The position numbers and the translations under genes are program-made. From positions 126,232,001 through 126,296,000 of the forward strand of contig OX597820.1 in NCBI GenBank assembly GCA_951406725.2: DNA of 64,000 nucleotides, given 5' to 3'. The notes below the pieces were generated by a model that was not told where the DNA came from, searched no databases, and worked only from the letters and a program-made list of their open reading frames with translations. Below are positions 22,901 through 31,900 of the stretch, piece after piece (the first letter of the stretch is position 1; every line of letters begins with the position of its first letter). Source of the stretch: Octopus vulgaris (taxonomy: Eukaryota).

Positions 22901-25900
22901 TATCAGAGCTGACAGGAGCTTCATAATGACAATTGTGCCCCGGCGCATCAAAACACTGAGTTTTTTTTATATCACACTTCACGGTATGAAAATATGCTTA
23001 TATTCCTTAAATTCTGTAGTCTTTTTCAATTCACTTCAAATAGATTTGCAAATGAATGACTAAAAACATTGCCAATCACATATAATCTATAATCTTCTGT
23101 TTAAACTGACTACCAATTAACCGGTTCGCCTATGAAGGAAACTTCGCTTCTCCAGTATGTCTAACTTGTGGTGACAATTTTATTCTTTGTAGTTTAAATG
23201 TGATATGGGTTGTTGTAGATAACAGAATCACGTTCGTCTGCAATACACAACTGATAGCAACGTGGCCGAAAACCATTGTTGGCTCTAGTTTTTAATCACA
23301 AGAGGAAGCCGGTTGTAATTATGTATGTCTGTGTGTGTAAACAACAATCCACTACTGATTTTGATCCTTATTGCTAATGGATCTGGTACGTACTCTGGAG
23401 TAGTTATATGTACTGCGCTAAAGCAAAACATTTTAAAAAGTGTTGGCCTCATAATTAAAGTTAACATGGTTTTGAGCTCATAAATCTAGAGCAAATAGAT
23501 CAAAATCTTAGCCATCAACCACCTCACTTTCTGAATTTACTGATGAACAATTTTGTCAACACCAAAATATCAACACAATAAAATGGATAAAGTTTCAAAA
23601 CAAACTATAAACAATTCATACTCTTACAAAAATTACAAATACTACATTGTATAACTGTGACATAGAGGACGCCATTAAATTACACGTTACACAAAGGAAA
23701 ACACCAAAACAATATGGTTTAGAAATTACACAATATTCAAAATTAAACATGAAAAAAATTACAGAATTACAATATTTATTAGATTATTTTAATTTTAAAA
23801 AGGTAATATTTTTATTTGTATTAGTAATAATCTTATATCTAACTGAAATATCTTACAACTACTAAACAAACATTTTAAAAACAGTTGAAAAGTGTAGAAC
23901 AATAAACATTAAAAACTGAAAGGTAAAAGATGAATTATTATCATGCTTTTTATTGGAATTGACAGAGCTGCTAGAAACAAGTGCGTTGAAATCATAACAT
24001 TTTTGGCATTTCAGTCTGAAATTCGTAAAAGCTTGAGAAAGAGGCAATTTAAAGAACATTTACAAAAGAAAGAAATTGTTGAAATTCCATATAGATGACC
24101 GAGATTCTAGTTCCTTTATTTGTTGCATTTGTGTTTGTTTTTGTTATTTTGTTATGTCTACAATAATAATTTTAAAAAAACAGAAAAACAACCATTTTCT
24201 TTCAATGCATGGAAACTAAATTATTGATTTCTAATATAGGCACAAGGCCTCATGTTTGTTAGAGAAAAGTACATACGAGCAAATCTCACCCTGATTTGAC
24301 TTGATATTTATCGATTCAAGAGAAAAACAATAGTAGCAACCTCTGTGTGATCTGAACTTTAACTCATAGCGCAAAGGATGCAACTAGCATGAAATTGCAA
24401 GCACTCCGTATTAAATTCTTCCATTTTGGACCATCCACTGATCAATTTCCTTCTGTGTTTTTTCTAGGGTTTTTGCTTCTTTTTTTTTTTACTTTAATTT
24501 TTGCTTTTCACATTCATAATTTGTCTAACATTATTTTCTACTAGAATTTAAATATTTTACAAACTGCCCACAGCTACACAGCTAGAATGACAGTAATATT
24601 ACCGACCATGAGTTCGGATCTTGCCACCGGCAATATATTGTATCCTACTAAGATCAAGAATCTTTATTTCTAAGTTATGAAATCCTACGTCTACGTAATA
24701 TATTAGACGAAGACTGTGCCGAAGTGCGTGTGTGTGTGTGTGTGTGTGTGTGTGTGTGTGTGTGTGTAACAATGCATTCCAGGAGACTATTTTGATATTC
24801 AATGAGGTCTTTTTTATGCTAAAGGCTGCGGGGATATTCGATAGAGATAGGAAATGTGAGGTCAACATAAATGATAAAAAAAAAAATATCATTTGCAAGT
24901 AAATCGTCAGGATCACCGTTTATATAACACGCATTGAGCAAGCAAATATCAAAGCAATTTTCAAAGAAAAGACGTTTCAGTGCTGAAAGTTTCGGGAAAA
25001 GCATTCCTAGATGTGGAAAAGATAATCAGGTCAAAGAGATAGTTACAAATGAAAGTTAAAAAGAAAAATATTTTTCAATGAAATAGAGGAGAAAGATAAA
25101 TTGAGACGAAAGGAAAATAGGAATCACAAAAAGAATTAATCCTATTTAATGAGTTGATGTTACAAAGGTAAGGAGAATATCTTAAAGGGAAATATTGCAA
25201 AAGCTGTTTATGTATCATACTTAATGCATGTACATCATTAACAAGCATCAGGCTGTGGTTTTGTCTGGTAGAAAATCACATATTGGGGTGAATCGAACAT
25301 TTTCAGCAACTCACGGGAACACCAGACGTTTTACGCCCTTCTTGGGGTCTTGTCAATGGCGAGTACCATCCCATCGCCATTGCAGTCAATAAAATTGTAA
25401 AGAATTCAACTGAGAAATGAAACTACGCACACATTTTATGTTCTTAGAATTTATATTAAATGATATTCTTCTATATTTCTCTTAATTAAATTTGTTTTTC
25501 ATCACATTCCCTGATATAAAACTATCAGAAAGCCGAGTGCTGTTTCAGGCTAACATAAGGTTTCAGTACGTTGAGAAACTGCTACAATAAACTTGGCTGA
25601 AAACTGAAGTTCCCAACGTAACCATCCCGTCGATTTTCTTTATCAGAGACTACGTTATCCAATATATATCCTTTATTAAACAAATGAGAATGTAATTTGA
25701 AGAATATTAGGTTATTATTTCTAATAAGTTGAGCGGCCAAGTAGAAGTTTACTAGACGGTTAATGTTTGTGCAACTGCGGACAAATACGTGAGGAGAGTG
25801 AATCGGAGATGACTAAATAGGAAAATGGTTGTAGAATTGGAAAGGGACTTAAAAAGAATGGTTTGGTGTGATGGTGGGTGAATATAAAATAAAAATAGTG

Positions 25901-28900: not shown

Positions 28901-31900
28901 AATAAGACGAAAGGAAAAGTAGATTAGCAACATACACCACTTTAAGAGAAACTAATAACTGCGCTCCATATATGTCTAAAAATTTGCGACTACTTTTGCA
29001 GTGAAGCTGTAAAAAACTTCAACTAAGAAACGAAACTTCACACTCGTTTTATGTACCTCGCATTTATATAAGGTAACAAGTTTGCATATTTCTATTAATT
29101 ATATTTATTTTTTCATTATAATTACTGACTCTATTGCTTTGTTGGCTGTATTGGATTTCTAAAGCTTTGGATCAAAGTTGTTAGTGAAGTGTTTTACAGA
29201 ATGTTACTCAAAATCTTCAAATATGTGCAATCATCAAATCTATATCTAGACTTCCTGTCGTCACGAAAGTTTTGCATTGCAAATTTCAGTCGCAGATGGC
29301 ATTTCGTATTCTTGGTTATAACGTAATTGTCTATTTGACAAGATAACTACCACTCAATCCAAGAAAAGTTTGGAAAAACACATTCACATCTATCATAACA
29401 CGACAACCCCATATTTCCAGCTGGACAACTTATTACTCGTCATTGTGGTCCTTGAAATAAATTATTGGTTCTGTATTCTAATATCTTTCATCTAAATGCA
29501 AATGCAATAACATTTGTTCCAGCAACAACAGAATGTGTGCTTTCACACTCCACCACCCGGCTGGAGCATGAGTACATTAGCTGAGTGTAGATGCCTCAAC
29601 TAACAATGGTATTTCAGTACATTTACAAAACTGCTACAGTATTCTAGACTAAGATGTTGTTACTGAGCCTCAAAAGAGTCTCCGCTGAAACGATTTTCTA
29701 AATGTAACCATCTCGTCTTTATCAGAGACTGTGTTGTCCAATATATATCCTTTATGAAACAAATTAGAGTGTAATTTGAAGAATATTAGTTTATTATTTC
29801 TAATACATCGAGTGACCAAGTAGGCGAATACTAGTTGGTTAATGTTTGTGCGTACAAAAACTGGCCACAGTTGTCTTGAAGTTATTCCTACTGAGGCCAA
29901 ATACGTGATGAGAGTAAATCGAGGATCACCAAATGGGAAAGTGGTGGTAGAATCGGAAAGAGTGGTCTGGTGTGATGGTGGGAGGGGAATGTAAAACAAA
30001 AATAGTGAAAAGCAGGATGGTACAAAGCGTTTCAGGAAAAAACTGATAGACTCAAATAAATGAAGTTTCGAAAAATCTTACATCGGAGCAGCAGGTTCCT
30101 CCACAGTTTCTCTGTGTTGAAATTAAAACAAATATTTAAAATTTTACGCCAATGCATAAATTTATGCACACAGACGTTCAGTGCATTCACTATATATATA
30201 CCTAAACACACACACACACACGTATATATTTAAACATAAATATACGTATATACAAAGATTTTGCAGAAACTTAAAATGCTTGTTCCAGAAAGTATGGAAA
30301 ATATTGATACTCTGTAATAACTAAAAACTTTTTCTCTAAAATATTAATATTAATCATTTCACGTCTACTCTGAAATATTGCTTAACGTTATTGATATTCT
30401 CCATAAACTTAATAACTTAAAACGGTATATTACTGGTACTGGAAATTATTTCTTTGAAAAGAGAAACACACTTCGAATGAAACGAACTGCAAGTAAACTT
30501 AGTCTAACAATCTCAAACAAAAATGTACATGAATTCAATAACAACGGAAGTATAAAAGCAAACATTTTCTTATCTGTTTGTTAGGGTTTCTGGTTTTATA
30601 TAATCTTAGAAAAGAGTCACACAAATGTAAACAAAAATAAAACAAAATAAATAACAGAGTGAATAGTAGTTAATTTCTTGGAAAATGTTAGGTTTCCTTA
30701 ATAAGTTAAAAAGGAGAAAGATTAAGAAAGTAGATGTTACTGAAAGAGATATATTTGATCTGAAAAAGGTGAAACTAGTTTCCTTCGACTAACAGACTCA
30801 CTATCTTTCAAATAAACAAAAACAAAACGAATGTTCAAAAGAAAATGTTGATGCTGTAAACTTACATCTGGCTAGTCTCTTCGGTTGATTGCCTGAATAG
30901 CAAAAACAAAATATTCTTAGTAATAATCCAAATTGCTCAACACTATATGGTTAATGATATTACTTCCATATATCAAAAGCAAAAAGAACAAAATTATAAA
31001 CATAAAATTTTATTTCTCGTCTGGTCTTGTTTTTTTTATGATAAAGAAAAGAAAATAATTTCTTTCGGTCATGCGCAAAAGCAGTTAAGATCTAGGAACA
31101 CTTAAAAATTTCACACAATTTTGTTATATTTGCGAAATTTAAAATAAAAAACATTTAATGACACCAAAAGAGGGGAGTAATACAGCAGACGGGAACACTA
31201 GTTTCAAACTTGCTTGATTCAAACTTATTAGATTTGAAACAATCGTGTTTAACTTATAAAATTCACTTTCATGAAACATCGTTATCCGATGAGAAAAGCA
31301 GTACGGATTTAGGTTTTTGAGACAGTAGAATTTGTACGTATTCACATCATTGACAATATCAATACTTTAGTCCATCAGAAGGAAATTATTTGTGATATTT
31401 GTTTTGCCTAAGATGTACAGACAATGCTTTGTCACTACTGCCGTTTCAAATTGAATGGACATATAGTTTCGGCTTTCTGAAAAACTTACAACTAATATCT
31501 CTACTGTCCAAAAAATTCTTGATTAAATTTTTATAAAATAGAACAGGCATTGATCTGGAATCTTCCCAGAATCTTATCGGACATTCGACCGTCGTCTTAA
31601 TCTGAGAGTAAGATTTGTTTTAACCTCTTATTTACGATGAAAACTAAATATGTTCTAGGATTGCAAAAGCAAAACAAATTAAGATATAGGATACATCTAT
31701 CATGGAAATTGATGCTTTGAGTTTTTTCACTTTAGTGTGTAATCAAAATTCCGGATACTCATTTCTGTTTTCTTTGGCGTAAACAAATGTTTGGTTGTTT
31801 AATGTTTTAAAGTTTAAATAAAAATATCTCCATTTTGTCAAACGTATTTTGTAAATACTTTACGATAAAAGAATTCTTGTATTGATATTTTTTGCATGGG

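Follow-up and report, generated by a model that had tools for sequence, protein, structure and literature searches.

Three small exons of the troponin T gene of Octopus vulgaris, here called m4, m5 and m6, are copies of one another, and all three are spliced. They belong to a set of nine cassette exons, all of the same phase, that encode the acidic N-terminal variable region of the protein. We consider it probable that they are duplicated, co-included exons, likely the outcome of two old segmental duplications and likely kept for tuning the length and charge of this region in steps. The gene lies on the minus strand of the window, by which we mean the whole stretch of 64,000 nucleotides that was analysed (GenBank assembly GCA_951406725.2, contig OX597820.1, positions 126,232,001 to 126,296,000). 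All coordinates below are positions in the window, and all exons and duplicated blocks are on its minus strand.

Exons m4 (30082..30111, peptide ETVEEPAAP) and m6 (25977..26006, ETVEEPPAP) are 30 nt long, and m5 (26894..26920, ETVEEHTP) is 27 nt long, having a 3-nt deletion. Each is of phase 2-2 and adds a net charge of -3. An initial annotation, made from the letters of the window, had named these peptides together with an acceptor (acag before AGA) and a donor (gtaagatttt after CCGAT); every one of them was found again, and the first ten intron bases after the donor are identical in the three copies. It had also remarked that the Val and first Glu codons vary synonymously and that the sole exon indel is exactly 3 nt. 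This is so, and yet the description was selective: next to three synonymous differences and one codon deletion there are three non-synonymous differences (Ala/Pro between m4 and m6, the other two in m5), which it left out. Under a stricter microexon limit of 27 nt, only m5 would qualify. With the range of about 3-30 nt given in the accessible part of PMC7392893, all three exons fall inside this size class. Neural microexons are a separate programme, in which Srrm-type factors drive inclusion mostly in neurons; the host here is a muscle gene.

The identity of the host gene is clear. Exon 6171-6380 matches the Pfam family Troponin (PF00992, E 5e-12) and shares 99% identity with the troponin T of O. 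bimaculoides and O. sinensis. An open frame of 402 residues runs through nineteen exons, from 38012 to 1721, and 400 of these residues are identical to O. sinensis isoform X1 (XP_029638593.1). A core exon of troponin T has at least one match in the genome, and the protein appears to be encoded by a single gene. All nine variable exons (m1 to m9) are 15-30 nt long, divisible by three and of phase 2-2. They stand N-terminal to the core; residues 1-86, encoded by the first coding segment and m1-m9, have a net charge of -27, and the pI of the isoforms ranges from 5.01 to 5.89. Among 122 candidates, residues 1-100 match only two clusters, both from Octopus.

Splicing was followed in contigs of four public sequencing runs (that these are RNA is our guess only), which were aligned to positions 17000-36900. 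In three of the four runs m3 is joined to m4, m4 to m5 and m5 to m6, with intron ends at the exact exon borders; these three runs come from three studies and bear two organism labels. Joints of m6 to m7 and of m7 to m8 are present in one run, and skipping joins, from m4 to the first core exon (c10) and from m6 to m9, are seen as loose ends of contigs. The fourth run has no joint through m4-m6, where its lack of coverage proves nothing. Joint depths vary among the runs; contig depth is no measure of expression, and the tissues of the runs are not stated. The initial annotation had left the choice between additive and exclusive use to be settled with reads. The joints of m4 to m5 and of m5 to m6 answer it in favour of additive use, and it is all three copies, rather than one alone, that are spliced.

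A system of mutually exclusive exons, in which each transcript takes one of m4, m5 and m6, would suit the layout of the locus. Homologous tandem duplicates of near-equal length are the usual anatomy of such cassettes, according to the accessible part of PMC9741552, and m4 stands alone in seven of the 30 RefSeq models described below. Nevertheless, mutual exclusion is ruled out by the pairwise joints, which contradict it directly; the introns of 3161 and 887 nt between the copies leave no steric block, and 13 of the 30 models hold two or three copies. We find this explanation scarcely credible. The octopus exons are like known tandem mutually exclusive exons in being homologous adjacent duplicates, and unlike them in being included together.

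These RefSeq models are the 30 listed members of a cluster of 87, and they are predictions, not independent molecules. Five of the eight possible patterns of inclusion are present among them (in the order m4-m5-m6, with 1 for inclusion: 000 in ten models, 100 in seven, 110 in six, 101 in three and 111 in four). No listed model contains m5 or m6 without m4 (13/20 vs 0/10, P 0.001). This dependence on m4 may possibly reflect ordered inclusion, or else mapping bias. We treat it as a lead only, because the models are predicted and a short read from m4 can be wrongly assigned to m6, or the reverse.

The common origin of the exons is written in their introns. Block A (27713..30710) comprises about 600 nt of upstream intron, m4, and the near and far downstream intron; its homology is patchy below about 29600, and in alignment with block C there is an indel of about 470 nt. 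Block B (26536..27487), the most diverged of the three, has upstream intron, m5 and only about 350 nt of near downstream intron. Block C (23932..26066) has about 60 nt of upstream intron, m6, and the near and far downstream intron. On self-comparison A and C are collinear over 29716-30171 and 25637-26066, with five further anchors reaching 27713 and 23932; A and B over 29745-30710 and 26536-27487; and B and C over 26688-26979 and 25772-26065. Local alignments of intron sequence alone score 363, 220 and 176; the highest scores in 60 shuffles were 36-41, and none of 72 other intron pieces scored above 44. A genome-wide search with block A found strong matches in blocks A, B and C only, plus two weak matches of 60 nt elsewhere. 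The collinear duplicated blocks proposed in the initial annotation are thus confirmed, with one correction to their extent: the start was misplaced, and block C reaches about 23930.

A CT/GA microsatellite (26066-26209) adjoins the upstream end of block C. A stretch of 15 nt at 25780-25795, next to a 39-nt gap in block C, is invariant in the downstream introns of all three blocks. It contains a word that looks like a QKI/How motif. Counts of QKI, RBFOX, MBNL, PTB and CELF consensus words, made with no statistical test, brought out nothing apparently special to m4-m6.

Could one exon have been triplicated by misassembly? Microsatellites are frequent in the region, and one adjoins block C, as just described. 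Against this, divergence among the copies is 14-32%, with numerous indels, independent runs contain each copy, a contig of 3.9 kb spans blocks A and B, and all three exons are found in the annotations of two other species. An assembly artefact, which the initial annotation had named as an outcome that would overturn its reading, is therefore refuted, and we give it practically no weight: the triplication is genuine.

It is also old. RefSeq annotations of O. sinensis and O. bimaculoides have m4, m5 and m6, three copies in the same order. Since all three are annotated in O. bimaculoides, the duplications predate the split of that species from the vulgaris-sinensis line, which the accessible part of 10.1101/2023.05.16.540928 puts at about 34 million years ago; an alternative range is 13-34 million years. 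The corrected distances between flanks (0.16 for m4 and m6, 0.29-0.42 for the pairs with m5) all exceed the synonymous distance of 0.123 between species, as would be expected if the copies arose before the split. A variable region that is "growing" by "recent" duplication, as the initial annotation had it, does not agree with these data. An expansion still in progress, with a copy number that is rising and may vary among individuals or close species, would explain why the introns align so easily, and the second pair of duplicates, m7 and m8, shows that duplication has recurred. Yet the order and number of copies are the same in the other two species, the flanks are more distant than the species are, and the search with block A found no near-identical copy in the genome. 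We hold a current expansion to be very unlikely.

Among 558 candidate relatives with genomic context (protein scan, metagenome contigs) none was confirmed, and a scan for the exon pattern gave none; a search of shorter proteins found no other octopods among 20 candidates. In 290 proteins the exon motif was present only in Octopus troponin T and in one unrelated match. The single Argonauta model is without m4-m6, although one predicted isoform cannot show absence.

How the three copies came about can be told in two ways. The initial annotation proposed growth by duplication of exon units. A segmental origin of exon plus intron is borne out, whereas simple stepwise tandem growth fits poorly, because the outer copies, m4 and m6, are the closest pair. 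At variable columns the odd one out is m5 in 78 cases, m4 in 28 and m6 in 21, and seven columns differ three ways. Over the first 550 columns of their alignment A and C are 78-90% identical, and over the final 100 columns 68-80%; identity is 85% in the near flank vs 76% at the five far anchors (P 0.001, a rough value, as the anchors are local hits). The intron after m4 (29600-30081) and that after m6 (25500-25976) are about 85% alike, and comparisons with m5 give about 75%. This likeness may be due to gene conversion, to constraint or to a younger duplication. One history that fits is that m5 split off first and a later duplication gave m4 and m6, with the intervening sequence lost. Another that fits is that the copies are of like age, m4 and m6 having been homogenised or constrained afterwards.

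In the three-way alignment, exon and splice sites are invariant at 53 of 62 positions vs 185 of 297 in the downstream flank (P 2e-4), and the exon alone at 23 of 27 (P 0.012). The result for exon and splice sites is stable across three alignment modes, and the best window of 65 columns covers the exon, with 54 invariant columns vs 42 downstream. The signal arises from comparisons involving m5. Stronger evidence comes from between species. Compared with O. bimaculoides, m4-m6 have one amino-acid change in 26 internal codons where 7.2 are expected (P 0.006), or two where 8.0 are expected if split codons are counted (P 0.014); the neutral expectation here is a genome-wide mean dS (0.123) taken from a paper and not from this locus. 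Exons m4 and m5 together have no change where 4.8 are expected (P 0.009), and all eight variable exons in the comparison have three where 17 are expected (P 3e-5, internal codons). Purifying selection on m4-m6 jointly is supported.

Several points nevertheless weigh against the explanation that we favour. Between m4 and m6 conservation of the exon does not exceed that of its flank (27/30, or 90%, compared to 279/324, or 86%; P 0.40), and dN/dS among the paralogues is 0.33 (P 0.17). With the lower, Z-linked dS of 0.091, the comparison with O. bimaculoides gives P = 0.03. No copy is significant alone (per-copy P 0.09, 0.10 and 0.30), and both between-species changes are in m6, an exon present in only 2 of the 16 listed O. 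bimaculoides models. Conservation of the exon bases may serve splicing instead of the protein. As for joint use, pairwise contig joints do not directly show one molecule with m4, m5 and m6, nor tissue specificity, though the three exons do occur together in the four models of pattern 111. The initial annotation had claimed purifying selection on all three copies and exons better conserved than their flanks; the first is sustained for the trio and does not reach significance copy by copy, and the second is true of the three-way alignment and not of m4 against m6.

One alternative is that the duplications and the splicing are real and the extra copies are near-neutral passengers in a disordered tip, where selection would act on frame and splice fidelity only and copy number would be irrelevant to muscle function. 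The lack of per-copy significance, the three non-synonymous changes and the codon deletion among the paralogues, the two changes in m6, and the absence of m8 from all 16 listed O. bimaculoides models are each consistent with such tolerated drift. Tolerance to structural drifting is reportedly named in the title of a 2001 paper by Jin and Samanez. On the other hand, drift does not readily account for the unchanged m4 and m5, for the deficit of changes over the eight variable exons, or for three copies that have persisted in both lineages over 13 million years or more. We think it unlikely.

The explanation we prefer, duplicated exons used additively, suggests the following sequence of events. 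A segment that held a symmetric exon together with its splice signals was duplicated, and each copy would have arrived with working splice sites and could have been spliced at once with the frame kept. The copies lie in the variable tip, which would tolerate insertions. Selection would then have kept the splice signals and most of the residues while the introns decayed. With zero to three copies included, on top of six other optional exons, the length and charge of the tip would be tuned, and muscles or developmental stages would differ in the number of exons that they include. Each exon adds a step of length and negative charge, which would tune muscle activation; that troponin conformation and Ca2+ sensitivity would change with it is taken from vertebrate proteins and may or may not carry over.

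A bolder suggestion can be made as well, which we regard as possible though rather doubtful. The exon may have been duplicated along with an intronic control module, so that m4 gates m5 and m6 and the tip is set by the muscles in fixed steps of three charges. The intron of about 550 nt after m4 and m6 would then carry the switch, and for that reason selection or gene conversion would have preserved its likeness in the two places.

The remaining parts of the gene are as follows. The first coding segment (37993..38012, with the start codon at 38012) and m1 (36498..36512, 15 nt) were placed by protein mapping, as the read evidence spans 17000-36900 only. Exon m2 (33952..33975) is 24 nt long and m3 (30866..30892) 27 nt, the latter with flanks that have no homology to those of m4-m6. 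Exons m7 (21715..21741) and m8 (20875..20901), each of 27 nt, are duplicate partners, followed by m9 (16885..16914, 30 nt) and by the nine coding exons of the conserved core (1721..14213), which end at the stop codon. The pair m7/m8 is 78% identical over 69 nt including the acceptor. Its flank homology is weak, and hence this duplication is probably older than that of m4-m6. Exon m8 is in none of the 16 listed O. bimaculoides models and in 4 of the 14 listed O. sinensis models, which suggests that it was lost or is unannotated in O. bimaculoides. The first full codon of m7 (21737-21741) is Glu here and Val in O. sinensis, one of the two differences between the proteins. In one run m7 is joined, at low depth, to an additional acceptor (17883, minus strand), from which the frame reaches a stop after 14 codons; this is possibly a cryptic or truncating exon. 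We also considered m3, m7, m8 and m9 as deeper homologues of m4-m6 and rejected them, their intron-only scores being within the shuffle range, one control value for m8 (370) being set aside because the test piece overlapped itself. When acceptor plus exon are scored from an anchor, no grouping stands out apart from the m4-m6 trio and the m7/m8 pair.

Elsewhere in the window, a tandem duplication of about 650 nt (60428-61090 and 61264-61887, 83% identical) lies upstream of the troponin T gene. Two dispersed repeat families, each with copies of 150-200 nt in both orientations, are probably short interspersed elements: one at 9323-9528, 39624-39799, 41172-41379, 49337-49759 and 52220-52374, the other at 751-944, 13649-13836 and 56898-57089. 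A repeat copy at 9506-9654 runs into a tandem array with a 21-nt unit.

We know of other troponin T genes with comparable arrangements. In vertebrates, short same-phase exons before the core vary the length and negative charge of the protein (accessible parts of PMC2447309, PMC7581897 and PMC13322953). Exons 4-8 of human TNNT3, which are same-phase and alternatively spliced, are one instance (accessible part of PMC2447309). The vertebrate variable region is said in the available part of PMC13322953 to bind no other filament protein and to modulate conformation. The octopus region is like the vertebrate one, including TNNT3 exons 4-8 and the foetal exon, in its short, same-phase, optional, acidic exons, and differs in that its duplication can still be read in the introns; vertebrates have three isoform types, while the octopus apparently has one troponin T gene. 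No vertebrate protein is among the matches to the octopus variable region, and for this reason the two regions likely evolved independently, as far as sequence can tell. In birds, fast troponin T can include as many as seven P exons with a repeating His-Glu motif, which raise its size and negative charge (accessible part of PMC7581897). The octopus exons are, similarly, lineage-specific, repeated, small and additive, and they lengthen and acidify the tip. In the octopus, though, there are three copies of a Glu/Pro-rich repeat with a single His in 26 residues; it is thus no metal-binding repeat based on His.

Among invertebrates, Drosophila has a single troponin T gene (upheld) with a 3-nt microexon, and splice variants of troponin T are reported from dragonflies (accessible part of PMC13322953). 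Like the octopus gene, the insect one is, on that partial account, a single invertebrate gene diversified by alternative splicing; insect troponin T also has a Glu-rich C-terminal extension. The available squid-like forms have short N-terminal tips and long C-terminal tails rich in Glu, Ala and Pro; in octopus troponin T, by contrast, it is the N-terminal tip that is long, and optional, and the acidic tail (1721-1800) is shorter. Exons m4-m6 are already annotated as alternative exons in RefSeq troponin T isoforms of O. sinensis (XP_029638593.1 among others) and O. bimaculoides (XP_052825609.1 among others), annotations which give nothing on exon origin. In searches on octopus or cephalopod troponin T splicing, on octopus microexons and on duplicated troponin T exons, which left subscription journals mostly uncovered, we found no published account of this case.

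What is described here adds one more instance to a habit for which troponin T genes are known: the exons were annotated before, and the pattern has precedent. Because the introns still align, the origin of small cassette exons can be followed cleanly here, and a mollusc joins the lineages with runs of small optional exons in the troponin T tip. The case also points to particular exons by whose inclusion arm, mantle and heart muscle could be told apart in cephalopods. The parts most worth following are the ordered inclusion and the likeness of the m4 and m6 introns. If the idea of a duplicated control module is correct, this would be one of the few loci where the copying and retuning of a splicing programme can still be read, convergent with the P exons of bird flight muscle, in an animal whose one troponin T gene would serve arm, mantle and heart muscle.

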